Source: Candidatus Woesearchaeota archaeon
Lineage (GTDB): Archaea; Nanobdellota; Nanobdellia; SCGC-AAA011-G17; UBA489
Assembly (NCBI GenBank): GCA_964366415.1
Contig: CAYITG010000001.1
Coordinates: 650,195-714,194, forward strand
Direction: 5' to 3'
Length of the DNA stretch: 64,000 bases
The notes below the pieces were generated by a model, which had not been told where the DNA came from, made no database searches, and worked only from the letters and a program-made list of their open reading frames with translations. The translations under genes and the position numbers were made by a program. Below are positions 7,958 to 61,791 of this stretch, in pieces. Position 1 is the first letter of the stretch, and the number at the start of each line of letters is the position of its first letter.

Positions 7958-10639
7958 ATGCAAAGATTACGAAGAGCAGTTAAAAAAATAGCTGCTATTA
8001 GTGCAGGAGTTGCCATGCTTGGCGCTACTATGACGAGCGCAGTTGCATTGGATCTTGCAGATTACCCAGCACCATTCGTCACGGATGGTACATATAACAC
8101 GGACACAGCCGTTGTTGTGGGAAGAGATGCAGCAGCATCCGATACTATCGGAATTGCTAATGTTATCAAAGGCTTGCAATTTGAGAGCAAAGTCTGTACG
8201 CCAGGACAGTCTGTCGGTGGCGGAGTCAGTATTTCTGGAGATGCAGTTGAAATCTCAGACGCAAGTGACTTGCTTGAATTGCGAGAAAACATTGGAAGCG
8301 TACGCGAAACCATTACAGAAGTTGAATTAGATGGTTTAGCAGGTGGTTTGGTTACCACAAATGAAGGAACAACTGAGTTTAACCAATATTTGCGTTTTAG
8401 AAACACAGTTACTGGCGTCAACACTTTGACGAATTCCCCTTCTATAAACTTTACCGAGAATGATGCTCCTACTTCTGAAGTAGGCGACTACTTGGTCATT
8501 CGAGAAGGCTCAGCAGCAAACACTAGTTTCTTTGAATATGAATTGGAATTCGAAGATGGTTTGGAATCTGACATTGCTTCCAGTAAATTGGAAGATTTGG
8601 AAGATGAAGAACTTATCATCTTGGGAACTACATACACCTTTGTCGACACACGTGTTGACACTAGTGCAAATTCAGTCGAACTTGACATGTTAGGTGGAGC
8701 TGAATATGCAGTTTTGGAAGAAGGTGAAGTACGAACATTTACCATTGATGGTAAAGAGTACGAAGTTGAAGTTTTAATTATTGAGGACACCAATCCTCCT
8801 ACCGCAACTTTCAAGATCAACGGCGAGATCACAGATCAGCTTGTTGATGGTGAAACTGAAATCCTTAAGGATGGAACCTTAATTGGTATTTCTGACATCA
8901 TCTTGAATGAAGCTGGTGAAGCTGGATCTGGCGACTTAGTTGAACTCTTTGTTGGAGCTACAAAACTTCAATTAAAAGACACTAACTACAGTAATTCTGA
9001 AGTAGGAGCCGGCGGACCAACATTAGGTTACTTCCAAGGTGTTGAAATTGATGAAGAACCTATTGAAGATGCCTTTGTGCAAATTCAAGCTAATCTCATC
9101 TCAGCTACAGAGCTTGAGTTGTTGAGCATCAAGTACAGACTTTCCGCAGACGCCTTACCCGGTCAACGAGACATTTTTGTTGCAGCTGGCCACGGAGTTC
9201 GTGAATACCTAGACGAACCTCAGGGTATGCTAGGCTTTGATTGGGACATCCGTTACGAAGGGTTAGACGATGTTGGAGTATCCATCATCAAATTAGATCC
9301 TAGTGGCGATGATGAATACCAGATCGAAGTTGAAAATAAACAAGGAAAGGTTTACAAGTGGCCTTTAATTACCAATGAAGGTGGAACTTTCAAATATGGA
9401 GACAACAATGATGACTTCGTATGGATTGAAGGTTTTATCAATACCACTGCTGCGGCAAACAACTTAACTGGAAGCAAAGACGATGGAACTCCAGATATCT
9501 TTAACGTCGGTCGATTGGACTATTTTATCTTAAGTGACATGGACCGAGCGTTTGATGATACTGCTGTATCTCATATTTTGAGGTATAATTCTATCGATGT
9601 TGCATCTGCACAGTTGCAGTTTGATGACCTTGCAACTGGAAGCAAAGACTTCATCTATGAAGCTGCAGGAAAGCTTGACGCTCTTGGACGAGCTGACATC
9701 GTGATTGGTGGAAGTACTTATACACTTTACATCGCTAACGTGACAGCTGGATTAGCAGGAGACGCACCTTTAGCTATTGATGCGGATGGAGATGGCGTTT
9801 TTACTGAACGTCAAGTCATACGTTTCACCACTAACGGTGGAGGTATTTTGACTTTTGGTCGAAATGGTGCGGTAAGTGATGGAGCTAATGTCTCTGCGAC
9901 AGGTGCAGCTACACAGGCATCATCCATTGCTGCAGGAAATAGTATTGCTGGTAACACAGCTGCTACTTTTATGAACCTTACCACTCTTAGCGAAAATTTC
10001 GATGAGAATGGACCATCTGCAACTGGAGACCCACCAACAAATATCAATGAGGACTTGCAATTTGCAGTTCAGCAAAGAGCTAATAATAGAATTGGAATTA
10101 GCACTGCGGCCTCAAACTGGTCTTCATTAGGCGGTTTTGCCTTAGTCCAACCAGACGAAGACGATGACCACTACTATGGTATGACTGACTATGGTGCACT
10201 CGTTACATTGTTTGATCCTGAAGGAACAGATGATGCTGAAACAGTCACCATTGAGTATCCACTCATTCAACGTGGTGCTCGTGCATTCATTACCATGGGC
10301 GAGACTACTGCAACTAAGACTACTGCAGGCGAAGTTTGTACTGTTGCATCGATTGATGTGAATACATTATTCGATGATGAAGTTACAGACCCAACCATGT
10401 ATGATATGATCCTCGTTGGAGGACCATGTATCAACGATGCAGTTGAGAAAGTCCCAGGTTTAACAACTTGTGATGAATTCAGATCACAGTATGCACCTGG
10501 AGATGCAATTGTCCAATTGGTTGAGAATGGCGATCATGTTGCCATGCTTGTCTCTGGTTACAATGCAGAAGACACCTTAGCAGCTGCAAAAGCAGTTGAG
10601 AAGGGAACTGGCATCAGTGGTACCTTAGCCACCATCTAA
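7958..10639 (+). CDS. putative S-layer or major surface glycoprotein (893 aa, acidic)
   Basis: It has a signal peptide (MQRLRRAVKKIAAISAGVAMLGATMTSAVA). It is rich in Asp/Glu/Thr/Gly and carries many N-x-S/T sequons. It is a monocistronic unit with its own promoter region and a hairpin plus T-tract downstream. AglB lies 7 kb away. Confidence 0.55.
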   Translation: MQRLRRAVKKIAAISAGVAMLGATMTSAVALDLADYPAPFVTDGTYNTDTAVVVGRDAAASDTIGIANVIKGLQFESKVCTPGQSVGGGVSISGDAVEISDASDLLELRENIGSVRETITEVELDGLAGGLVTTNEGTTEFNQYLRFRNTVTGVNTLTNSPSINFTENDAPTSEVGDYLVIREGSAANTSFFEYELEFEDGLESDIASSKLEDLEDEELIILGTTYTFVDTRVDTSANSVELDMLGGAEYAVLEEGEVRTFTIDGKEYEVEVLIIEDTNPPTATFKINGEITDQLVDGETEILKDGTLIGISDIILNEAGEAGSGDLVELFVGATKLQLKDTNYSNSEVGAGGPTLGYFQGVEIDEEPIEDAFVQIQANLISATELELLSIKYRLSADALPGQRDIFVAAGHGVREYLDEPQGMLGFDWDIRYEGLDDVGVSIIKLDPSGDDEYQIEVENKQGKVYKWPLITNEGGTFKYGDNNDDFVWIEGFINTTAAANNLTGSKDDGTPDIFNVGRLDYFILSDMDRAFDDTAVSHILRYNSIDVASAQLQFDDLATGSKDFIYEAAGKLDALGRADIVIGGSTYTLYIANVTAGLAGDAPLAIDADGDGVFTERQVIRFTTNGGGILTFGRNGAVSDGANVSATGAATQASSIAAGNSIAGNTAATFMNLTTLSENFDENGPSATGDPPTNINEDLQFAVQQRANNRIGISTAASNWSSLGGFALVQPDEDDDHYYGMTDYGALVTLFDPEGTDDAETVTIEYPLIQRGARAFITMGETTATKTTAGEVCTVASIDVNTLFDDEVTDPTMYDMILVGGPCINDAVEKVPGLTTCDEFRSQYAPGDAIVQLVENGDHVAMLVSGYNAEDTLAAAKAVEKGTGISGTLATI

Positions 10640-10640
10640 A

Positions 10641-10676
10641 AGAGAGATTAACTCTCTTTCTTTTTTCTTTTTCATT
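10641..10676 (+). terminator. hairpin plus oligo-T terminator after the surface protein gene
   Basis: AGAGAG-attaa-CTCTCT inverted repeat followed by TTCTTTTTTCTTTTTC. Confidence 0.45.
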
Positions 10677-10741
10677 TTTATGACCCTAGTGAATACTTTG
10701 TGGAAAACTTTATATAGTCGCATTCAAGGTGATGTGTTAAC

Positions 10742-11167
10742 ATGATTGTTGGATTTAATCTTACAAAAATTTTAGTTGAGCGTAAGAAACCCGTGCAAGG
10801 AAAGATCAAAGTCAATCACGATTTGCGCATTGACAATGTTGAACAACGACCCTTACCTCTTAAAGACAAAAAGAATGCTCTTATCTTTGAGTTTGTTTTT
10901 AATATTAACTATGAACCTGGCGTAGGCGAAGTCGCTTTACAAGGAAATGTTTTGTATTATGATGATCAGAAGAAGCTTGATGCTATTGCTCAGCAATGGA
11001 AAAAGACCAAAAAAGTTGCTCCAGAAGTTTCTGTTGAAGTCATTAATGTTATCTTTGCTCGCTGTAATATCCGTGCTTTGGAACTTAGTCAAGAACTTAA
11101 CTTACCTGCACATCTTCCTTTACCTCAGATTAATCTGAAAGAAGATCCTAGTAAATACATTGGTTAA
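10742..11167 (+). CDS. hypothetical cytoplasmic protein
   Basis: ORF with an RBS (AAGGTGATG) and no recognisable motifs. Confidence 0.45.
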   Translation: MIVGFNLTKILVERKKPVQGKIKVNHDLRIDNVEQRPLPLKDKKNALIFEFVFNINYEPGVGEVALQGNVLYYDDQKKLDAIAQQWKKTKKVAPEVSVEVINVIFARCNIRALELSQELNLPAHLPLPQINLKEDPSKYIG

Positions 11168-11766
11168 TGTTTTCTATGAAAACTCGAGCTTCTCCAGGAG
11201 AGCAACGTGAGACCAAGAAGCTCTTTCTACCACTTTTTATTGCTACCATTCTTATCATGAGTACGTTTGGTATTATTCTTGGTGGATTTTCCTCTGAAGA
11301 ATCAACAACCACTCAAGGAGAGAATATTGGTGGCGCTTACTTCAGCCTTTCTAATGGCCGATGGATTGTTCAGGGCAGCGGATATACTTTGAATTTGCAG
11401 TATGGTCCTGAAGCTCTTCGCGCTGTTGAACCTATTGATGTTAACTCTTTACGTCAAGTCTCTAAAGTTTATATTAGTTACAAAAGCGGAGAGAATACTT
11501 TAAATGCGATTCCTGACTTTTATCAAAATATGAAACAATTTGTTAAAGTGACTCCAGCTTGCGTGGAAGATGGATCTGGATGCGAAGAACTTCCCTTAAA
11601 GACTTGCGCAGATGCAGATTCTTCTGTTGGCGTTGTTATGATCACTCTTTCTTCTGAACAACATATTACTCAAGAAGGAACATGTATCCACATTCAAGGT
11701 GATGCAGAATATATTACTGCTGTTGTTGACAGAATTCTTTTGACTTATGTTGGAGTTACTTTATGA
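11167..11766 (+). CDS. membrane-anchored hypothetical protein
   Basis: It has an N-terminal signal anchor. Its C-terminal motif DRILLTYVGV is shared with the next ORF, so the two are paralogs. Confidence 0.45.
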   Translation: MFSMKTRASPGEQRETKKLFLPLFIATILIMSTFGIILGGFSSEESTTTQGENIGGAYFSLSNGRWIVQGSGYTLNLQYGPEALRAVEPIDVNSLRQVSKVYISYKSGENTLNAIPDFYQNMKQFVKVTPACVEDGSGCEELPLKTCADADSSVGVVMITLSSEQHITQEGTCIHIQGDAEYITAVVDRILLTYVGVTL

Positions 11767-12368
11767 AACCTCATGAAAAACAGCTCATGATTATTTTTGT
11801 CATTCTTGGGATTTTATTTCTTGGTCTGATTGGTGGCATTATGTATTATAAAAAAGAATATCAAAAAAGTTATTTTACCTATCGTGGTTTTGACTTCAAA
11901 CAAGTTGCTGGAGGATATCAGATTACAGTCTATATCAATGAACAACAGATTCCACGCACACTTACTTTACGGTCAGACCCTCGTGACATCGAAGATATTC
12001 CTGTCGAGACAGACGTACGTTCCTTAATAAAAAAGAAAGAGATCTTCGTAACGATTAATCCTTATGATAATCTTACCGGGCTCACCACCATGGCAGTGTT
12101 AGAACTTGATAAAGTTTTAGATAATCCTAATTTGTATAACATTCCTTTGAATGCTTCTTTTACAGAACTTTATCCAAAAGGAGGATTAAGCGTGAAGACA
12201 TGTGTTGATGCTACTCCCGATATCGCTGTCTTATGGTTTAAACTTGAAGAACGCACGCGCATTTATGAGAATGAGGGATGTATTATTATTGCTGGAGAAC
12301 AAGAGGAAGATCTTGTTGAGGTCGCGGATAGAATTATTTATACACTCTTGGGCATTATGGATTCCTGA
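11763..12368 (+). CDS. membrane-anchored hypothetical protein (paralog of 11167..11766)
   Basis: It has an N-terminal TM helix, a 4-nt overlap with the upstream gene, and a conserved C-terminal motif ADRIIYTLLGI. Confidence 0.45.
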   Translation: MKPHEKQLMIIFVILGILFLGLIGGIMYYKKEYQKSYFTYRGFDFKQVAGGYQITVYINEQQIPRTLTLRSDPRDIEDIPVETDVRSLIKKKEIFVTINPYDNLTGLTTMAVLELDKVLDNPNLYNIPLNASFTELYPKGGLSVKTCVDATPDIAVLWFKLEERTRIYENEGCIIIAGEQEEDLVEVADRIIYTLLGIMDS

Positions 12369-12385: not shown

Positions 12386-12527
12386 CGCCGGGAGCAGGAT
12401 TTGAACCTGCATATCCTTGCGGAAACAGGCTGACCTGATATGTACTCAAGGCATACGCAATAAGAACCTAGGTTCTTATCAACTCCTAGACTTATTTCTG
12501 CGCACTACCAGGTTATGCGATCCCGGC
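12386..12527 (-). tRNA. intron-containing tRNA gene (142 nt; isotype not resolved)
   Basis: On the minus strand it reads 5'-GCCGGGA-T-C-GCAT-AACCTGGTA-GTGC.... The 3' end is GCAGG-TTCAAAT-CCTGC-TCCCGGC-G, giving a perfect 7-bp acceptor stem, a canonical D-arm and a canonical T-arm (GGTTCAAATCC). About 65-70 nt of extra sequence lie between the D-arm and T-arm, so there is at least one intron. CCA is not encoded. Confidence 0.6.
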
Positions 12528-12550: not shown

Positions 12551-12562
12551 TTCTTTTAAACC
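12551..12562 (-). promoter_or_regulatory. putative TATA box for the tRNA gene
   Basis: TTTAAAAG on the minus strand lies ~26-30 nt upstream of the tRNA 5' end. Confidence 0.3.
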
Positions 12563-13662: not shown

Positions 13663-14022
13663 ATGGTTGTATCCCCAGATAAAACTATTGTCGGTCTTGT
13701 TGAAGAAGTTGAAATTAACAATCAGATTTTTCTCGCACGTATTGATACAGGAGCAGCTACAAGTTCTATTGATTTAGGATTGGCATCTGAATTGCAACTA
13801 GGGCCTTTAATTGCCAAGCGCACTGTACGCTCTGCTCAAGGAAAAGCTATTCGGCCTGTCGTCAAAGTGTCTGTGCGCATTAAAAACCGCAGAATGCGCG
13901 CTTCTTTTACTGTCATTCATCGGGCGCATATGGATTATCCCATCCTTATCGGGAGAAATCTTTTGAAAAAAAACTTTCTTATTGATCCAGCATTACCGTT
14001 ACCTACACGGAAAATCTCATGA
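13663..14022 (+). CDS. retropepsin-like aspartic protease (COG4067-type, RimK-associated)
   Basis: It carries the D-T-G-A active-site motif (ARIDTGAATSS). It is 119 aa and overlaps the downstream ATP-grasp gene by 4 nt. Confidence 0.65.
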   Translation: MVVSPDKTIVGLVEEVEINNQIFLARIDTGAATSSIDLGLASELQLGPLIAKRTVRSAQGKAIRPVVKVSVRIKNRRMRASFTVIHRAHMDYPILIGRNLLKKNFLIDPALPLPTRKIS

Positions 14023-15092
14023 AACTCTGTGTCATCAGCCTTGGCGGAAAAAGTAGTTTGCATATTGCGAAAGAAGCTGAACATTACTTTGATCATGTTG
14101 ATGCTGTTGATCTTCGCACGTTAGAAGTTCATGCTTCCTCAGAAGGACTGGATGTTTTTTCTGGAAAAAAACAACTTAAGGATTATGATTGTATTTACAT
14201 TCGTGGATCGTTCAAATATACTCTTCTTCAACGCGCCATTAGCCGAGCATTTTACAATGAGGCGTATTTACCCATTAAACCTTTAGCATTTTCTATTGCT
14301 CATGATAAATTTCTTACCTTGCTTGAACTTTTGAAGAATGGAGTGAATACTCCGAAGACATATTTTGCTGCAACCACTCCTGCTGCTAAAAAAATCCTTG
14401 AAGACGTTCAATACCCTATCGTGATGAAGATTCCTTTTGGCACCCAGGGAAAAGGCGTCATGATGGCAGATTCTTTGATGGGCGCAAAAACGATGTTGGA
14501 TGCTTTAGAAACTTTCAAACAACCTTACATTATTCAGGAGTTCATTGATGCGGACTTTACAGACATTCGTGCTGTTGTCATTGGCAATAAAGTCATTGCT
14601 ATGAAAAGACGGGCTGCTTCAGAAGAAATGCGCGCCAATATTCATGCTGGCGGGAAGGGAGAACTTGTTGAGATTAGTCCTGATATTGAACAAATTGCCT
14701 TAAAATCTGCGAAAGTATTAGGGGCAGACATTTGCGCCGTTGATATTATGGAGGGTAGAAAACCTTCCGTTATTGAAGTGAATCTTTCTCCAGGCCTTGC
14801 AGGCATTACCAAAGCCACTAAAAAAAACGTTGCGCAATCTATTGCCAAATACCTTGCAGAACAAACTCAGGATTATCTCAAGAAAAAGAAAGCAGCTCAA
14901 CAGGGAAAGATCATGAATGCACTTCCACGCCGCAATACTAAAATCCTTTCTACTCTTGATGTTCGCAATGGCATGATCCGTTTGCCTAAATTTGTTACTG
15001 ATCTCAGCGAGTTCACTATGAATGATGAAATCACCCTTATTGTGGACAAAGGAAAAGTCGAAATTCGAGACACTAAGATCAAGAAAGAATAG
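14019..15092 (+). CDS. RimK-like ATP-grasp alpha-L-glutamate ligase family protein
   Basis: ATP-grasp motifs are present (KIPFGTQGKGVMMAD; IIQEFID...DIRAVVIGNKVIAMKRRA). It is paired with a retropepsin-like protein as in RimK loci. Confidence 0.7.
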   Translation: MKLCVISLGGKSSLHIAKEAEHYFDHVDAVDLRTLEVHASSEGLDVFSGKKQLKDYDCIYIRGSFKYTLLQRAISRAFYNEAYLPIKPLAFSIAHDKFLTLLELLKNGVNTPKTYFAATTPAAKKILEDVQYPIVMKIPFGTQGKGVMMADSLMGAKTMLDALETFKQPYIIQEFIDADFTDIRAVVIGNKVIAMKRRAASEEMRANIHAGGKGELVEISPDIEQIALKSAKVLGADICAVDIMEGRKPSVIEVNLSPGLAGITKATKKNVAQSIAKYLAEQTQDYLKKKKAAQQGKIMNALPRRNTKILSTLDVRNGMIRLPKFVTDLSEFTMNDEITLIVDKGKVEIRDTKIKKE

Positions 15093-15173: not shown

Positions 15174-15725
15174 ATGGACATTGAAGAAGCATTGCAAAAG
15201 AAAGGACTTGTTAACATCCAGTCCATTAATAACCATATCCGTTTGGACCTACGTTATGCTACTGCGAATAATATAACAAAAAAGAAATTGTATTCCAGAC
15301 CACTCTGTTTTTTCAGAGAAGAAGTTGCTGAAAACCTTTCATTCGTTCAGCAAGAATTAGAGAACAAAGGATTAACTTTAATTATTTGGGATGGCTACCG
15401 GCCACTTCGCATACAAACATCCATCTGGAACGCATTTCCTCATCCTACTTACAATACAAAAATTTCTTCTCACAATAAAGGAATTGCTGTAGATCTTACT
15501 TTAGGAGATAAGGATGGCAATCCTCTTCCTATGCCAACAGCATTCGATGTTTTTGGAGAACAAAGCCATCATGGATTTGGTAAACTTCCAGAAACTGTCA
15601 TAGCAAATAGAGAGACGCTAAAGGATGTTATGGAACGACATGGTTTTGAACGTTTTGAATTTGAGTGGTGGCATTATACCTACACTAAATTAAAGGATGT
15701 AGAGGTATTAGACATTCCGATTTAA
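15174..15725 (+). CDS. D-Ala-D-Ala dipeptidase (VanX/DdpX, M15D peptidase)
   Basis: It has an SxHxxGxAxD motif (SSHNKGIAVDL) and a C-terminal EWWH (FEFEWWHYTY). The length is 183 aa. Confidence 0.65.
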   Translation: MDIEEALQKKGLVNIQSINNHIRLDLRYATANNITKKKLYSRPLCFFREEVAENLSFVQQELENKGLTLIIWDGYRPLRIQTSIWNAFPHPTYNTKISSHNKGIAVDLTLGDKDGNPLPMPTAFDVFGEQSHHGFGKLPETVIANRETLKDVMERHGFERFEFEWWHYTYTKLKDVEVLDIPI

Positions 15726-21730: not shown

Positions 21731-23299
21731 ATGCCCCGTCCTTCCCGCACCTCTTTACAGGTTATCCAAACTCCTGATTTTGTTAGTCATGCATCTGAAA
21801 ACAATAAAGTTGATATAGCCAAAACTTCTTATCAACAATTCCTTCTTTCACGTAAAGGTTTTCAAAAAAAGAAACTTTTACTTGTTATTCCTAACATTGT
21901 TGGCGATAAGATTGCCGCAACAGCCCCTTTGCCGGGCGTTGCTTATATTGCTGGGTTTGTGAGATCTGTAGGACATGATGTCCGTGTTGTTGATATGCGT
22001 GTTGATAGTCATATCAATCACCTTTACAGTTCTATTCGCGAATACCAGCCTGATTTTATTGGTCTTAGTTTTATGACGCAGCATGAATTTGATAAAATTT
22101 TTGAATTTATCAGCAATTTACATCAAACCTACCCTCAAGCGAAACTAGTTGTTGGAGGAGCCGGAGCATCAGGACTATATGACCGCGTCTTGCGTGAAAC
22201 TGCGGTTGATTATGTCATTACCCGTGAAGGCGAATACACTCTTGTTCAACTTATGGACCATATCCTTGATATAAAAAATATTAGTGGACTCATTTGGAAA
22301 CAAAATAGTGAGATTATCAAAAACCCTCATCGCAAATTTGAATTCAATGTTGATGAATTACCTTTTCCAGCGTATGATTTATTCCCCATGCATGCTTATG
22401 TTGATCGCAAGATTCCTGTCGTAACATCGCGTGGCTGCCCTTACAAGTGTACATTCTGTGCGAACAAAGCTTCTATGGGTGTCGCTTGGAGACCGCGTAG
22501 CCCTGAAAATATTTTACAAGAACTTAGTTTTTGGTATAACAAAGGATTTAACGTATTCCACTTTGTTGATGATAATTTCACCCTCGATATGCAACGCGCA
22601 GAAAAGATTTGTGATCTTATTATTCAGAGCGGTATCAAAATTAAATGGGATTTACGAAATGGTATCCGTGTAGATCGTGTCAATGAACAACTCCTAACGA
22701 AGATGAAACAATCTGGCTGTTTCTATTTTGCTTTTGGAATAGAATCTGTAGATCAAGATGTCTTAGATAAGATGAAGAAAGATTTGGCTGTTGAAAAAAT
22801 TGAGGAAGGAGTACGCGTAGCCGAGAAAGTTGGCATTCCCTTTGGCGGATTTTTTATTATAGGCCTTCTTGATGACACTTTTGAAAAATTCCTCAAGCTA
22901 TATAACTTTGCTCAATCGCATAACTTTTCTGAAGTACGTTTTTATAATCCTATTCCTTTTCCAGGAACTGAACTTTATGAAGAGCTCGTACAACGAAAAT
23001 TATTGCTTGTCGATCCTTCTGATTACTTGAATTATAACTCTAAGTTTAATGACGAACCTGTCTTTGCCACTCCAGAATTCACCTATGAAGAACGTAAAAA
23101 AGCCTTACGCATGGGACAAGATCTTGTTATGTCAAAATTTTTGAAGAAGGAATTTGGCTCTCTTCTTGGAACGTTTGCCTATCATGTTTGGAAAATGCCC
23201 TTGCTACGCCCTATCGCACAAGATGCGGGCATGTTCGCTTGGAAAACACTTCGGAAATTACGTCGAAGCTCCTTGCATGAGGGTTGGGCAACACATTAA
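21731..23299 (+). CDS. B12-binding domain radical SAM protein
   Basis: An N-terminal cobalamin-binding-like domain is followed by CPYKCTFC (Cx3Cx2C). Confidence 0.8.
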   Translation: MPRPSRTSLQVIQTPDFVSHASENNKVDIAKTSYQQFLLSRKGFQKKKLLLVIPNIVGDKIAATAPLPGVAYIAGFVRSVGHDVRVVDMRVDSHINHLYSSIREYQPDFIGLSFMTQHEFDKIFEFISNLHQTYPQAKLVVGGAGASGLYDRVLRETAVDYVITREGEYTLVQLMDHILDIKNISGLIWKQNSEIIKNPHRKFEFNVDELPFPAYDLFPMHAYVDRKIPVVTSRGCPYKCTFCANKASMGVAWRPRSPENILQELSFWYNKGFNVFHFVDDNFTLDMQRAEKICDLIIQSGIKIKWDLRNGIRVDRVNEQLLTKMKQSGCFYFAFGIESVDQDVLDKMKKDLAVEKIEEGVRVAEKVGIPFGGFFIIGLLDDTFEKFLKLYNFAQSHNFSEVRFYNPIPFPGTELYEELVQRKLLLVDPSDYLNYNSKFNDEPVFATPEFTYEERKKALRMGQDLVMSKFLKKEFGSLLGTFAYHVWKMPLLRPIAQDAGMFAWKTLRKLRRSSLHEGWATH

Positions 23300-23353: not shown

Positions 23354-24772
23354 ATGCGCATCGTCTTTATTACTCCACCTTATAGCATTAGCGAACGCTA
23401 CCACACCAAAGCTAAAATCAATAAAGGTTATCTTCCTCCTTTAGGTTTAGCTTCTATAGCGACAGTACTCAAAGAAGCAGGACATCATATAAAAATTCTT
23501 GATCTCCAAGTGCTTAATTACTCTTTAGAGAACATTCGTCAAGAGCTCACCGCATTTTCACCAGATCTTATTGCACTTTCTGCTGTTACTCCCACCATTG
23601 ATAAAGCATATCTTCTTGCAAATTTTATTCGTACTCATTTTGGTGTTCCCCTTATATTTGGCGGAGTACATCCCTCTATGTATCCGGAACAGACCCTTAA
23701 AGAATGCGTAGCTGTCGATGTCGTCGTTATTGGAGAAGCTGAATATACTTTCCGCGAACTTGCTGCCCTGCTTGAAAAGGGGACTCCTCTTAACAATCTA
23801 AAAGATGTACGAGGGGTTTGCTATAGAAATAAAAGTGGCAAAATAATAAGGAATTTACCACGTCCACTTATCATGAATCTTAATGAATTACCTATAGCCT
23901 CGCGTGAATTTTTTGATATGGACAAATACATTCCCTTACCAAATCAATACAAAATTCTTCCTGTTACCAATATGATGGTTGGCAGAGGGTGTCCTTATGG
24001 GCAATGCACTTTCTGTTTTGAAGCTGGAGATTTTAAACCTCTTTATCGTCGTGTTACTGTTGATAGGGCTATTGAAGAGATTCAAATGCTTATACATAAA
24101 CATGGCATTCGAGAGATTTCTTTTTGGGATGATGTTTTTCTTATTGGAACACGGTGGACCACTGATTTTTTTGAAGCTTTAAAACGAGAAAAGATAGATA
24201 TACAATGGTCTTGTTATGGATACTTTAATTATCTTACCCATGATATGCTGAAACAAGCAGCTTCTGTTGGGTGTTGGAATATTTTCTTTGGTATTGAAAG
24301 TGGAAATCAAATGTTGCTTGACACCATCAAAAAAGGATTTAATTTAGACAAAGCAAAGCAAGTGATTGCTTGGACACGTGAAGCAGGCATTGAAACACGA
24401 GGTTCTTTTATTTTAGGATTGCCAAATGAAACACCCAAACTTGCTATGGAAACTATCAACTTCGCTATTGATCTTGATTTAGACTACGCGCAGTTTACTC
24501 TTAATACCCCCTTCCCTGGAACTGAGATGTGGAAAACAGGTGGACGATATGGGGCGATTGATACTACATTTAAAGATTACTCCGTTCATAATCCTGTTTA
24601 TTTACCGAAGGGTTATTCTACTAAGGAAGAACTTCTTGCCATGCAGAAACTTGCTTATCGTAAATTTTATTTCAGACCACATTATATCCTTAAGCACCTC
24701 AAGAGAATTCGTACTTTTACTGATGTTAAAAAATATGCTTCTGGACTACGTTTCTTAATAGGTATGCAGTAA
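23354..24772 (+). CDS. B12-binding domain radical SAM protein
   Basis: An N-terminal B12-binding-like domain is followed by CPYGQCTFC. The Cys spacing is the variant Cx4Cx2C. Confidence 0.75.
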   Translation: MRIVFITPPYSISERYHTKAKINKGYLPPLGLASIATVLKEAGHHIKILDLQVLNYSLENIRQELTAFSPDLIALSAVTPTIDKAYLLANFIRTHFGVPLIFGGVHPSMYPEQTLKECVAVDVVVIGEAEYTFRELAALLEKGTPLNNLKDVRGVCYRNKSGKIIRNLPRPLIMNLNELPIASREFFDMDKYIPLPNQYKILPVTNMMVGRGCPYGQCTFCFEAGDFKPLYRRVTVDRAIEEIQMLIHKHGIREISFWDDVFLIGTRWTTDFFEALKREKIDIQWSCYGYFNYLTHDMLKQAASVGCWNIFFGIESGNQMLLDTIKKGFNLDKAKQVIAWTREAGIETRGSFILGLPNETPKLAMETINFAIDLDLDYAQFTLNTPFPGTEMWKTGGRYGAIDTTFKDYSVHNPVYLPKGYSTKEELLAMQKLAYRKFYFRPHYILKHLKRIRTFTDVKKYASGLRFLIGMQ

Positions 24773-51644: not shown

Positions 51645-53171
51645 TTAAATGCTTTGCCCCATTGAATGTTCAATACTCTTTTTTGGATCTGTGCGATCAT
51701 GCCTCTGCAGCCCGTATCTGGTGCGTATTTTATCATCAATTTCTTGACGTAATTCAAGGAAATCTTGTGCGCTCACCTTTTCTGTTCTAACATATACTAC
51801 ATTCTCGCCGGGAGCTGTTTTGTATGGTGCTGTCTCTCTTGCAAAATCAATGGCACGCACATATAATTCTCCTTCTCCTAAAACGCGTTGGAATTCATCA
51901 CTATGCTTTCCTCTATTTGGCCTCAGACCATCATACACGCGCGATCCTGGATAGGGGGTTAAAATTGTCAAATCGAAATCCCACTTCATGTTATACTGTT
52001 GTGCAAGTTTTCCTAATCTTTCGAGGAATTTTTCTGTCATGCGAATATCGTCTACTGTTTCTGTTGGTTGCCCCATCATTGTCAACGCTTTCATTTCTAT
52101 TCCATGCTCAAAAGCCAATTTTGTAGCTTGATAGTTAATCTCTGCCGTTGTATTCTTTTTCACGTAATCTTTCAGTATTCTATCTGATCCACTTTCGAAA
52201 CCTGAGAGCACAATATGAAACCCGGCACGCTTCATCGCAGGCGCAACTTCCGGATGCCTCACAAAAAGTTCCGATTTAATAAATCCCCTATATGAGAATG
52301 GCCTCTCATCTTTTGCCATTCTTTCTTTGTTATTTCTCTCAAGAACTTCCAACAATTCCATTGTTGCTCTTGCGTCTAAGTTTAGTTCATCATCATAAAA
52401 CATGAATCCTGTTACCGAAGGAAATTTTTCATTAATGTGGTTTAGCTCTGCGACAACTCTTTCAGGGCTATATGCACGCCTTCTTCCCGTCGTTTTACTT
52501 TTTACGAAACGGTATTGAGGAATATTTCTCCCAGAACAAAAATTACAGTTAAAGGGACAACCGCGCTGAGATAGGATGCTTGTAGCTGGACCGCCATCAA
52601 TATCAAATTTTGGAGACCCATCGTCTTTGAATAAATAAGCTTGCATATCGATAAGCTCACGTGGCAAGAAAGGAAGCTTATCAAGATCATCGAATGTTCC
52701 AGAATATACCCACCTTGAGGACTGAGGTTTATTTAATCTCTTTAATGCTTCAAAGATTCCTAATTCTTCTCCTTCAATGATCTGGTCGAATATCTCCAAA
52801 GAATGGAAATTTGCATCACCTTCATATAACTCACTTTCTTTCACCATAGACTCTAATCTTCTTTTTCTTAGACTTGCAAACATTGTTGCATGCGGACCAC
52901 CAATCACTACATTGGCATGCGGATGCACTGCTTTAATTGATGAAAGTATACTTACTGCGTAACTAAACTGCGGAGATGTTGCTGTAATTCCATAAATATC
53001 AAAATTTTGTTGCGCAATTTGTTGCGCTTTGGTTTCATAGTCTCCATACCCTGCCAAATCAAAAAGCTTTACTTCATGCCCTGCTTTTTGCGCTATTCCT
53101 GCAATACTTAGCAGACCGAGTGAGAAAAATACTTTATCATCTGTAAGAAAAAATGACGGCGGATTAATCAA
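51645..53171 (-). CDS. B12-binding domain radical SAM protein
   Basis: An N-terminal B12-binding-like domain is followed by GCPFNCNFCSG (Cx3Cx2C). Confidence 0.8.
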   Translation of the reverse strand: MINPPSFFLTDDKVFFSLGLLSIAGIAQKAGHEVKLFDLAGYGDYETKAQQIAQQNFDIYGITATSPQFSYAVSILSSIKAVHPHANVVIGGPHATMFASLRKRRLESMVKESELYEGDANFHSLEIFDQIIEGEELGIFEALKRLNKPQSSRWVYSGTFDDLDKLPFLPRELIDMQAYLFKDDGSPKFDIDGGPATSILSQRGCPFNCNFCSGRNIPQYRFVKSKTTGRRRAYSPERVVAELNHINEKFPSVTGFMFYDDELNLDARATMELLEVLERNNKERMAKDERPFSYRGFIKSELFVRHPEVAPAMKRAGFHIVLSGFESGSDRILKDYVKKNTTAEINYQATKLAFEHGIEMKALTMMGQPTETVDDIRMTEKFLERLGKLAQQYNMKWDFDLTILTPYPGSRVYDGLRPNRGKHSDEFQRVLGEGELYVRAIDFARETAPYKTAPGENVVYVRTEKVSAQDFLELRQEIDDKIRTRYGLQRHDRTDPKKSIEHSMGQSI

Positions 53172-59134: not shown

Positions 59135-60178
59135 ATGAAACAAATAGTCAGAGTAGGAAATGCCATTGCTATTCGCGATGTACCCATTCCTCACGCTTCG
59201 CCAGGATTTATTGTAGTACGAAATTCCTATTCTTTAATCAGTACTGGTACAGAAACGAGATCTTTACGAAACTCTTCTGCTTTAGTTAAAGGCATCACAA
59301 CCATATCCAGAAAGATTTTTGCACCTCAGAAAGCATATGCTAATCTTGGATACACCTGTGCAGGTGTCATAGAAGAGATTGGAGAGGGCGTACATGGATT
59401 TGCTCTTGGTGATCGTGTTTTGTGTGTTGGCTTTGATTATGCAGTTCATGCCGAAATTGTAAAAGTCCCTGCTCCTTTAGTTTTCCATCTTCCGCAGACT
59501 ATTTCTTTTACTCATGCTCCTTTTGCTGCCCTAGGAAGTGTGGCGCTACATGCTCTTCGCAGAAGCAATATCGCTTTTGGTGAAAAAGCCCTCGTGATAG
59601 GATTGGGACTTACTGGACAACTCTTAGTCAGACTTTTACTGCTTAATGGCTGCTCTGTTATTGGTGTTGATCCTAATGATTATAAGATTACATTAGCGCA
59701 AAAAGCTGGCGGAGAGTATATTAAAGGAAAACGTGACTTTGCTCAAACTGTTCTGGATAAAACAGGACATGGTGTTGATGTTGCTTTTGTGTGCACCGAT
59801 ATGCACGACAACGAAAATCTTGAGGAAATTATGACTACGATACGTGATAGAGGAAAACTTGTTGCTGTAGCTAACATCACTTGTTCTTTGCCCTTCCCAC
59901 TTTTTTTTCGTAAGGAACTTGACCTTATTGTATCGCGATCCTTTGGCCCTGGACGTTTTGACAAAGAATATGAGGAAAAAGGCATTGATTATCCTTTAGG
60001 ATATGTGAGATGGACTGAACGGAGAAACATCGAAGAAGTTCTTCGTCTTCTTGGCGAGCAGAAACTTGTTGTTGATCCTTTGATCAGTGCAGAGTATCCT
60101 ATCCAACATGCTCAACAAGCATATCATTCCCTGCTTGGAAGAACTAGGCCCGTGGCGCTATTATTAAAATATTCTTAG
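59135..60178 (+). CDS. MDR (zinc-binding alcohol dehydrogenase-like) oxidoreductase, paralog of the N-terminal half of 54764..56884
   Basis: The N-terminus SYSLISTGTETRSL and the Rossmann motif LVIGLGLTGQLLVRLL are shared with the bi-domain enzyme. The C-terminus has RSFGPGRFDKEYEEKG, as in its paralog. Confidence 0.7.
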   Translation: MKQIVRVGNAIAIRDVPIPHASPGFIVVRNSYSLISTGTETRSLRNSSALVKGITTISRKIFAPQKAYANLGYTCAGVIEEIGEGVHGFALGDRVLCVGFDYAVHAEIVKVPAPLVFHLPQTISFTHAPFAALGSVALHALRRSNIAFGEKALVIGLGLTGQLLVRLLLLNGCSVIGVDPNDYKITLAQKAGGEYIKGKRDFAQTVLDKTGHGVDVAFVCTDMHDNENLEEIMTTIRDRGKLVAVANITCSLPFPLFFRKELDLIVSRSFGPGRFDKEYEEKGIDYPLGYVRWTERRNIEEVLRLLGEQKLVVDPLISAEYPIQHAQQAYHSLLGRTRPVALLLKYS

Positions 60179-61791
60179 CTGCTTTCTATAAGGCTTTTTA
60201 TGTTTGGCACTGTCTGTATTGTTTCTGGAGATTTTTCGATTGCTTCTTCGTGAATATGACCATCATGTGCTTTGAGTTTGATCATTGTTTTTCTGTAAAG
60301 ACGAAGACCATGGTTCTTTGCAAGACGCGTCATGAAAAATGGAAGTAATGATAATCCTTTCAGCTTCTTCGTTGCGCTTGATGAGAGTTTCCATCCTTTG
60401 TTTAATTCTTCAAGAAACATTTTCAAATCTTTCTTCGATTTAATAGTGAAATGGTAAGGAGTATAATCATTTTTGAACAGATAAAAATAATCCCCCTTAT
60501 CTTGAAGATCAAATAATCTTCCTAATGCAAACCTCATGATAAATCTACGCGAGTATTCTCGCATATCTTTCTCTGGGAGATTGCTGTTTTGGAATCTTGG
60601 CACAGGAAAGCCGCTAAAGTTACGCTTATCTGCCTGCGCCCATGAGAAATCTTTTGGGATATACCCTTGAAGGATTGCCATATCGTACAGTGCTGTGCCA
60701 GGTATAGCATCGGTGAGCGTGAATGTGACTGCATCTCCTCGTAACTGGAAAGCCAGATCAAATGTTTCTTGAAGTGTTTCTTTAGTTTCACCAGGATGTC
60801 CAATCATAAAAAAGGTTCCTACTCCTATGCCTGCTTCTTTTGCCAATTTAATGGCATTAATCACCATAGATTTCACAATGCCTTTGCTGATAGTTTTCAT
60901 GAGCCCCTCATTTCCTGTTTCTATTCCAAATTCAATCAGCCTGCATCCTGTGCGTTTCATGATGGCAAGGATATCTTTGTCTACCAGATTAACACGAGTA
61001 AGGCATTCCCATTCGACGTTAAGTTTTCTCCTTTCCATCTCCAACATCACTGCCTTTGCCCATTCTTTGTCTGCCGTGAAGACGTCATCTTTCATGTGAA
61101 TTACTTTTTTTCCATACCTTGTGACCAACAATTCTATCTCGTCAACTACTTTTATCGGATCTCGCGTGCGTAATTTTCTTTTCCAAAATTGAGGTGATCC
61201 ACAGAAATTACAGCTATATGGGCATCCTCTTGTCCCCATGATTCCATAATATCTATATTGTGCTGTTGGAAAGAGATCATATGCTGGCATAGGGATATTT
61301 GTAATATCCATGAATTCACGATCTGGATTGCACACGATATTTCCTTTCTTGTCTCTATATGACACTCCTTTCACATTGTTTAGACTTTTTCCCTTTTCAA
61401 ATTGCCCTATAATTTCGGCCATTGTTTCTTCTGCTTCTCCTCGTACAATGAGATCAATCCAGGGAATATGCTGCAATGTGTCCTTATCCATGAATGTTGT
61501 GTGCTGGCCTCCAAAAATTACATATGCGCCGGTTTCTTTTGCCATCTTAGCGAGGTCAAATCCATCAAAACGGTTGTAACTGAACGCAGAAATGCACACT
61601 ATATCTGGCTTTTTTGCTTTTAATGCGTTTTCTGCTTCTTGTTTGGTTAATTTCAATACGTCTAAATCAAACACTTCTTGCTCAATATCCGGATAGCGCT
61701 CTTTCAAATAACTTGCAATAAACCCTATCCCCAAAGGTGGTTCATACATTTCTCCTGAAAGGAACGGACGCATATAGATAACTTTCATCAT
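60175..61791 (-). CDS. B12-binding domain radical SAM protein
   Basis: An N-terminal B12-binding-like domain is followed by GCPYSCNFCGS (Cx3Cx2C). Confidence 0.8.
   Translation of the reverse strand: MMKVIYMRPFLSGEMYEPPLGIGFIASYLKERYPDIEQEVFDLDVLKLTKQEAENALKAKKPDIVCISAFSYNRFDGFDLAKMAKETGAYVIFGGQHTTFMDKDTLQHIPWIDLIVRGEAEETMAEIIGQFEKGKSLNNVKGVSYRDKKGNIVCNPDREFMDITNIPMPAYDLFPTAQYRYYGIMGTRGCPYSCNFCGSPQFWKRKLRTRDPIKVVDEIELLVTRYGKKVIHMKDDVFTADKEWAKAVMLEMERRKLNVEWECLTRVNLVDKDILAIMKRTGCRLIEFGIETGNEGLMKTISKGIVKSMVINAIKLAKEAGIGVGTFFMIGHPGETKETLQETFDLAFQLRGDAVTFTLTDAIPGTALYDMAILQGYIPKDFSWAQADKRNFSGFPVPRFQNSNLPEKDMREYSRRFIMRFALGRLFDLQDKGDYFYLFKNDYTPYHFTIKSKKDLKMFLEELNKGWKLSSSATKKLKGLSLLPFFMTRLAKNHGLRLYRKTMIKLKAHDGHIHEEAIEKSPETIQTVPNIKSLIESS

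Follow-up and report, generated by a model that had tools for sequence, protein, structure and literature searches.

How does a tRNA gene with intact outer arms and an over-long middle yield a tRNA, and which tRNA does it yield? The question is raised by 142 nt at positions 12386..12527 of the 64-kb stretch of DNA analysed here (the window), which belongs to a contig of 813,862 bp (ENA ERZ1292616; Hainich groundwater, 0.1-um fraction). A first-pass annotation had recognized a tRNA gene of this length with canonical acceptor, D and T arms and had argued that no single intron at the canonical position 37/38 restores its anticodon arm; both statements hold, and the gene lies on the minus strand. 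Comparison with relatives points, with a probability that we put at about 93%, to a tRNA-Ser(UGA) gene that is functional in its host, a Woesearchaeota-like DPANN archaeon of the Hainich groundwater, and whose two introns would be removed by archaeal protein splicing. The earlier reading was partly supported, being right in kind and wrong in detail.

Results

Gene structure and predicted mature tRNA

Read from 12527 to 12386, the 142 nt, which include the discriminator G73 and encode no CCA, are arranged as GCCGGGA-TC-GCAT-AACCTGGTA-GTGC-G-CAG↓AAATAAGTCTAGGAGTTGATAAGAACCTAGGTTCTTATTGCGTAT↓GC-CTTGAG↓TACATATCAGGTC↓A-GCCTG-TTTCCGCAAGGATAT-GCAGG-TTCAAAT-CCTGC-TCCCGGC-G, where arrows mark the predicted splice sites; the acceptor stem (GCCGGGA/TCCCGGC), the D arm and the T arm are as described before. 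Exon 1 (RNA nt 1-30; 12498..12527, minus strand) comprises the 5' strand of the acceptor stem, the D arm, G26 and C27-A28-G29 of the anticodon stem. It is followed by intron 1, 45 nt long, at the non-canonical position 29/30 (12453..12497, minus strand). Exon 2 has 8 nt (12445..12452, minus strand) and supplies G30, C31 and the anticodon-loop nt 32-37 (CUUGAG), with the anticodon UGA (nt 34-36) at 12446..12448 on the same strand. Intron 2, 13 nt long (UACAUAUCAGGUC; 12432..12444, minus strand), occupies the canonical position 37/38, and exon 3 (12386..12431, minus strand) carries A38, the 3' strand of the anticodon stem (GCCUG), the variable arm, the T arm, the 3' strand of the acceptor stem and G73. 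Intronic sequence amounts to 58 nt (45 + 13), less than the ~67 nt (65-70) first estimated, the mature tRNA being of class II and 84 nt long.

Removal of both introns, with predicted junctions ...GUGCGCAG↓GCCUUGAG↓AGCCUG... in the mature RNA (CAG↓GCC and GAG↓AGC), leaves an 84-nt class II RNA with a valid cloverleaf. ARAGORN and RNAalifold show the three arms (D, anticodon and T) together with a 7-bp acceptor stem; all five base pairs of the anticodon stem are intact (CAGGC/GCCUG, from CAG↓GC and GCCUG in the gene) and the loop CUUGAGA has U33, the anticodon UGA and a purine, G37, at position 37. Serine identity in archaea is conferred by a long variable arm (>10 nt, with a stem of its own) and the G73 discriminator. 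The predicted tRNA has both: G73, and in place of the 4-nt variable loop proposed earlier a variable arm of 15 nt (UUUCCGCAAGGAUAU; 12411..12425, minus strand) with a UCC/GGA stem and a GCAA loop, which is seen in the RNAalifold consensus. A TATA-box-like TTTAAAA (12554..12560, minus strand) lies 27-33 nt upstream of the mature 5' end, and an equally spaced element (TTTTAAA, TTTAAAA or TTTATAAA) is present in 18/18 orthologous or paralogous loci inspected; the box at -27..-33 is the probable promoter.

The gene is poorly visible to standard detectors. Rfam at gathering thresholds returned nothing for it, and at E<=10 the unspliced gene gave a local T-arm match alone (RF00005, 14.4 bits). The ARAGORN run that had been recommended gave a mixed outcome: at default settings it reported no tRNA in the 64-kb window, in intron mode it read the unspliced sequence as a tRNA-Arg(CCU) with one 64-nt intron after nt 33, and tRNA-Ser(tga) was obtained only with the spliced 84-mer. 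The program is too permissive to tell models apart, as it also takes versions of the gene spliced to tRNA-Val and tRNA-Glu.

Splice motifs of the two introns

We scanned every position pair for a BHB motif, defined as a central helix of 4 bp in which each strand is followed on its 3' side by a bulge of 3 nt, with the cut after the second bulge nucleotide. The top candidate, 30↓31...75↓76, removes RNA nt 31-75 and has all four central-helix pairs (H 4/4, GCGC/GCGU), an intron-internal helix h' of 6 bp (AAUAAG/CUUAUU) and no outer helix (h 0). Its exon strand Ha is G24 C25 G26 C27 (GCGC; 12500..12503, minus strand), which pairs with the intron strand Hb, GCGU (12455..12458, minus strand), followed by the 3' bulge A-U↓G. 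The 5' strand of h', AAUAAG (12491..12496, minus strand), runs on into UCUAGG/CCUAGG, and its 3' strand is CUUAUU (12459..12464, minus strand). Both splice sites of intron 1 fall in opposite 3-nt bulges, A28 G29↓A and A U↓G30 (AG↓A and AU↓G), so that the motif has BHB geometry, in the relaxed HBh' and not the strict hBHBh' form because h is 0 bp. The local MFE fold (nt 25-77, -13.3 kcal/mol) contains the H helix and a long hairpin, AAUAAG-UCUAGG / CCUAGG-uu-CUUAUU, and is BHB-competent; forming the central helix needs the D-stem pairs 10:25 and 11:24 and the pair 27:43 to be melted. A register shifted by +1 (CGCA/UGCG, 31↓32...74↓75) also reaches H 4/4 but was rejected, as its CAGA+UGCC product breaks the anticodon stem and conflicts with the orthologues.

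Intron 2 was recovered by the same scan as RNA nt 84-96 (83↓84...96↓97), with H 4/4 between the loop nt 32-35 (CUUG) and intron CAGG, two opposite 3-nt bulges (AG↓U and UC↓A) and the anticodon stem as outer helix. Its h' has <=1 bp, which makes the motif hBH-like and not strictly hBHBh'. ARAGORN detects intron 2 after removal of intron 1, and the canonical-intron central helix has at least 3/4 pairs in 16/17 distinct genes tabulated, the window gene having 4/4. BHB folding, which had been proposed as a check, gives a motif at each of the two introns (relaxed HBh' at 29/30, and at 37/38). The expectation of two introns, one of them non-canonical, was borne out; the positions foreseen for them, 25/26-26/27 and a ~20-nt intron in the loop, were replaced by 29/30 (45 nt) and 37/38 (13 nt).

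Dozens of 4-bp central helices arise by chance in 142 nt. Because of these, and because ARAGORN accepts rival spliced forms, the assignment of splice sites rests on comparative data and not on the scan; scan and ARAGORN by themselves decide nothing, and the comparative evidence is decisive.

A search of the 64-kb window for further copies of intron 1 matched only intron 1 itself. Other readings of the introns were rejected for their small size and for want of the expected motifs. C/D box sRNAs, exemplified by the Haloferax tRNA-Trp intron, carry a C box (RUGAUGA) and a D box (CUGA); direct reading of intron 1 found UGAUAA as the nearest motif and no CUGA, and 45 nt is too short for such an RNA. 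Group I and group II ribozyme cores take hundreds of nt, Rfam matched neither in the window or region, and the introns have 45 and 13 nt.

Orthologous loci and covariation

A 25-nt string from the T arm and acceptor stem recurs exactly in 12 species-representative genomes, all DPANN (Nanoarchaeota/Woesearchaeota, Aenigmatarchaeota) and always at tRNA-Ser, which places the gene far beyond chance, and a variable-arm/T-arm pattern search added 21 metagenome loci. The S-layer gene, p141, p199, p201 and the tRNA recur together at orthologous loci, and the closest group is also syntenic downstream (AI-2E permease, aspartyl protease and RimK, 69-81% amino-acid identity). Judged by this gene order, the tRNA-Ser(UGA) loci are positional orthologues.

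Several of these orthologues have the 37/38 intron only. In L010, L018 and L025 the sequence GTGCG-CAGGC-CTTGAG is contiguous, and in L015, L022 and L024 (CGGGC/GCCCG) and L016 (CGAGC/GCTCG) the anticodon stem is uninterrupted. The contiguous sequence of intron-1-free orthologues agrees exactly with the join of exons 1 and 2 predicted in the window gene, and the boundary of exon 1 is set both by L010, L018 and L025, which carry contiguous GTGCGCAGGCCTTGAG, and by the BHB scan. Rfam recognizes intron-1-free orthologues as full-length tRNAs (L015, 48.2 bits; L025, 47.2 bits). All spliced products (30/30) are 84 nt or near, and for 17 relatives, spliced or intronless, RNAalifold yields a class II cloverleaf as consensus, with a hairpin in the variable arm. 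The anticodon-stem pair 28:42 appears as AU, CG, GC and UA, also where intron 1 splits the strands (L017, CCG↓GC/GCCGG; L034, CTG↓GC/GCCAG).

An intron of 21-48 nt at exactly 29/30 is found in eight distinct genes: the window gene, L007 (= L019), L020, L026, L033, L035, L017 and L034. The interiors of the eight introns are largely unrelated, and their alignment was fixed in register by distance from the splice sites. In this fixed register 90% of the H and h' cells are paired, vs 30-61% with the 3' partners slid by 1-3 columns (n=8); 6/6 h' pairs change on both sides in a compensatory manner, and 0/500 shuffles match the observed covariation score (n=8). Ha is invariantly GCGC across orthologues, and its partner strand is GCGU, GCGC or GUGG. 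The minimal form is seen in L017 (A-UCCUU-UUUU-AAGGA-GCGU-AA); for intron 1, L020 and L026 have 3/4 central-helix pairs, and L026 has 2/4 for intron 2. The gene and its exon/intron boundaries, the conservation and covariation of its motif and its orthology are direct observations from these alignments.

The history of the 29/30 intron was followed on a neighbour-joining tree of p201 (about 170-200 residues, no support values), in which intron-bearing and intron-free loci are interleaved: L035, with the intron, is sister to L015, without it; the sister of the window and L026 is a clade free of the intron; and the intron-bearing L034 is outermost. The tree tentatively suggests several gains or losses of the intron.

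Rival readings of the locus

The locus could be a decaying pseudogene, a tRNA-Ser broken by an insertion and no longer spliced. Failure of the standard detectors, the relaxed BHB of intron 1 and a palindromic hairpin that is thermodynamically favoured in isolation agree with such a view. On the other hand, L020 and L026 have identical exons, and the only differences from orthologues that lack intron 1 are at stem positions that covary; the splice motif has been kept by compensatory changes in eight lineages, the promoter-like box is conserved and the position is orthologous and syntenic. We consider decay very improbable.

Still less probable is the model of the first-pass annotation, a class I tRNA with the anticodon stem CCUUG/CAAGG, a 4-nt variable loop, an intron of ~48 nt at 25/26-27/28 and another of ~20 nt in the loop. 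The 5-bp complementarity is real, and ARAGORN takes two spliced versions as tRNA-Val(tac) or tRNA-Glu(ttc), but their loops, AGUACAG (G33) and AUUUCCG (C37), are both non-standard and neither splice-site pair is among the BHB candidates. In the tRNA-Ser(UGA) structure CCTTG is C31 plus the loop nt 32-35, and CAAGG comes from the variable-arm hairpin UCC-GCAA-GGA, where it belongs to the loop and the 3' strand, as intronless tRNA-Ser(CGA) genes (L009, L014, L006) carry the same string, TTTCCGCAAGGAT, in their variable region. The CCUUG/CAAGG pairing shows no covariation, 261/500 shuffles pairing equally well, and it breaks at 37:55 in 6/17 sequences with other anticodons; as CAAGG belongs to the variable arm, the match is coincidental. 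Orthologues without the first intron, in which CAGGC is contiguous with G26, already refute the class I model.

The tRNA-Arg(CCU) with its single 64-nt intron after nt 33, the sole model that ARAGORN -i gives on the unspliced sequence, is already excluded by the orthologue comparison and deserves practically no credence, since its anticodon stem (CAGAA/UUCCG) would contain an A.C mismatch and its variable loop 9 nt, it has no BHB at its junctions, it takes an invariant variable-arm sequence (UUCCG) for a 3' stem strand, and the entirely different intron 1 sequences of L017, L034 and L035 cannot be reconciled with it. No model with a single canonical intron works, and the two-intron tRNA-Ser(UGA) is the reading followed below.

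The palindrome and the competing folds of intron 1

Intron 1 contains a perfect 20-nt palindrome, ATAAGAACCTAGGTTCTTAT (12460..12479, a self-match), whose core is the 12-mer GAACCTAGGTTC (12464..12475). The 12-mer had been noted before as a feature of the first intron; it is present there and joins the intron hairpin, but it is not conserved in orthologues. The palindrome is replaced by CAGCCTGGGTTC in L007 and is also lost as a palindrome in L033. The suggestion that it might be a homing-endonuclease-like target fails on size, since a 45-nt intron can neither encode nor host one.

Intron 1 also holds an imperfect internal duplication, AUAAG-UCUAGG ... AUAAGAA-CCUAGG, and the 3' strand CCUAGG-UU-CUUAU is able to pair with either duplicate. 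The BHB-competent long hairpin arises when the upstream copy is used, and a palindromic 9-bp hairpin when the adjacent one is; the latter is favoured in the isolated intron and in the global MFE, and the two folds are mutually exclusive. The precursor as a whole has an MFE fold of -52 kcal/mol that differs from both the cloverleaf and the double-BHB fold (-36 to -45 kcal/mol) and favours the palindromic hairpin, a competitor of h'; this global fold is uninformative, local and constrained folds alone being useful. In L007, UCUAGG/CCUAGG has become CUCAGG/CCUGGG, a compensatory change. Because L007 loses the palindrome yet keeps the pairing by compensation, the conserved element is the BHB-competent hairpin, and on this comparison the perfect palindrome is a lineage-specific by-product. 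A more speculative thought, which we rate as rather unlikely, is that the 29/30 intron may be actively turning over in groundwater Woesearchaeota-like DPANN; its presence or absence among sisters would then record recent gain or loss of a BHB intron, and the two exclusive folds could gate the order or efficiency of splicing.

Further tRNA genes among the recovered loci

The searches also recovered tRNA genes of other architectures. A single sample, ERZ1292623 (Hainich well H51), holds three configurations of tRNA-Ser(UGA): L019 with introns of 47+12 nt, L021 with 12 nt only and L035 with 26+34 nt. The tRNA-Ser(UGA) of L018 (Ga0114944_1027532) has an A3.G70 mismatch in the acceptor stem (GCAGGGA vs TCCCGGC), which could be a sequencing error, a mark of a pseudogene or tolerated. 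Those of L008 and L013 (Aenigmatarchaeota), 174 nt long, carry an insertion of ~88 nt in the D-loop region and are otherwise intronless. The tRNA-Ser(GGA) genes L023, L031 and L036 have, besides the canonical intron, a 44-nt intron at 20/21 in the D loop (helix CCCG/CGGG, inner CAGAG/CUCUG), from which L028-L030 are free while otherwise identical; the D loop reads CCCGG only in the copies with the 20/21 intron and CCTGG otherwise, and CCCGG improves the central helix. L004, a contig of 6.8 kb, bears three tRNA genes at 139-237 and 1009-1209 on the minus strand, two of them one base apart (1009-1094 and 1096-1209); its two over-length genes (99 and 114 nt) probably contain introns.

Genomic surroundings

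The block at 7958-12368 (plus strand) consists of an S-layer-like gene (PF05124) followed by p141 (10742-11167), p199 (11167-11766) and p201 (11763-12368), and is syntenic across Woesearchaeota-like loci. p141, p199 and p201 had no Pfam match, and p199 and p201 appear to be paralogues. On the other side lie a RimK ATP-grasp/aspartyl-protease pair (13663-15092) and, adjoining it, a VanX-like D-Ala-D-Ala dipeptidase gene (15174-15725, plus strand; PF01427, E 1e-33), in an archaeon; this enzyme might bear on how the archaeon interacts with bacterial cell walls. A Pfam scan of the 56 window ORFs further showed that ~46 kb (17411-63469) are taken up by one very large cluster for glycosylation and the cell surface, a large share of the ~0.8 Mb genome. 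It contains AglB/STT3, many GT2, GT4 and GT9 (heptosyltransferase-like) genes, two PMT_2, two Wzx-type flippases, a carbamoyltransferase and sugar nucleotide enzymes, together with three B12-binding radical-SAM proteins (21731-23299, 23354-24772 and 60175-61791) and another radical SAM protein (51645-52883).

Discussion

From the established archaeal pathway we infer how the tRNA would be made. The 142-nt precursor body would be transcribed from the minus strand. At intron 1, G24-C27 (GCGC) would pair with GCGU near the 3' end of the intron as the central helix while the intron hairpin supplies h'; at intron 2, the anticodon stem would act as the outer helix and CUUG would pair with CAGG. Both motifs can form at once because their nucleotides do not overlap. 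EndA would recognize both BHB-like motifs and cut at G29↓A, U↓G30, G37↓U and C↓A38, an RtcB-type ligase would join the three exons into the 84-nt tRNA, and the product would be serylated. The Pfam scan found no gene for EndA or the ligase (RtcB) among the 56 ORFs of the 64-kb window. An EndA of strict specificity would not be expected to cut here, because intron 1 lacks an outer helix and intron 2 essentially lacks h'. Relaxed BHB forms of both types have already been described, and are reported to need endonucleases of broad specificity: (alpha-beta)2, epsilon2, or DPANN alpha4 with an L3 loop (PMC5829648, PMC3239211).

For annotation the consequence is practical. With neither default ARAGORN nor Rfam detecting a tRNA at this locus, and ARAGORN in intron mode proposing Arg(CCU), automated annotation of this DPANN genome would show tRNA-Ser(UGA) as missing or wrong, the tRNA needed to read UCA codons. 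The syntenic orthologues, without the 29/30 intron or with one of 21 to 48 nt, form a small clean comparative data set that supports the relaxed HBh' motif by covariation and is usable for studying intron gain and loss in DPANN. Knowledge of tRNA splicing is unchanged by this locus, whose main value is the annotation correction and a covariation-supported HBh' example in DPANN.

Among archaea the window gene is ordinary, 29/30 introns and multi-intron DPANN tRNAs being already described. Multi-intron tRNA genes with non-canonical BHB introns were reportedly described in Crenarchaeota/Thermoproteales by Marck & Grosjean in 2003 and by Sugahara et al. in 2007 and 2008. The window gene resembles those of Crenarchaeota/Thermoproteales in combining a 37/38 intron with a second one elsewhere in the gene, in its relaxed HBh'/hBH motifs, in position 29/30 being among the known sites and in its patchy occurrence among relatives (PMC4090602). 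It differs in that those hosts are thermophilic TACK archaea whereas the window host is a mesophilic groundwater DPANN, and in that no near-identical intron copies across tRNA genes were found here, the window having one tRNA gene. A marked rise in disrupted tRNA genes, with multiple and non-canonical introns, has been reported for DPANN including Woese- and Pacearchaeota (PMC5829648). In ARMAN-2 (Ca. Micrarchaeum), pre-tRNAs with non-canonical or double introns are cut by an epsilon2 EndA (PMC3239211, PMC3488258); the window gene shares with them a DPANN host, relaxed BHB motifs, short (13-nt) introns and two introns in one tRNA, but the ARMAN-2 introns lie in the T loop (53/54, 59/60) and intron 1 lies in the anticodon stem. 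Methanopyrus kandleri pre-tRNA-Glu(UUC), like the window gene, pairs one strict-position intron with one of HBh' type, and experiments suggest that its canonical intron leaves first (PMC5829648); its second intron is in the D loop and not at 29/30, the isotype is another one and the host is a euryarchaeal hyperthermophile. Position 29/30 itself is a listed non-canonical intron position and a split-tRNA site in Caldivirga (review PMC4090602). In the split tRNA-Ala(CGC/UGC) of Caldivirga maquilingensis, 29/30 is likewise a BHB-processed junction, but there the halves are separate genes joined in trans, whereas the window holds one contiguous gene with an intron in cis (PMC4090602).
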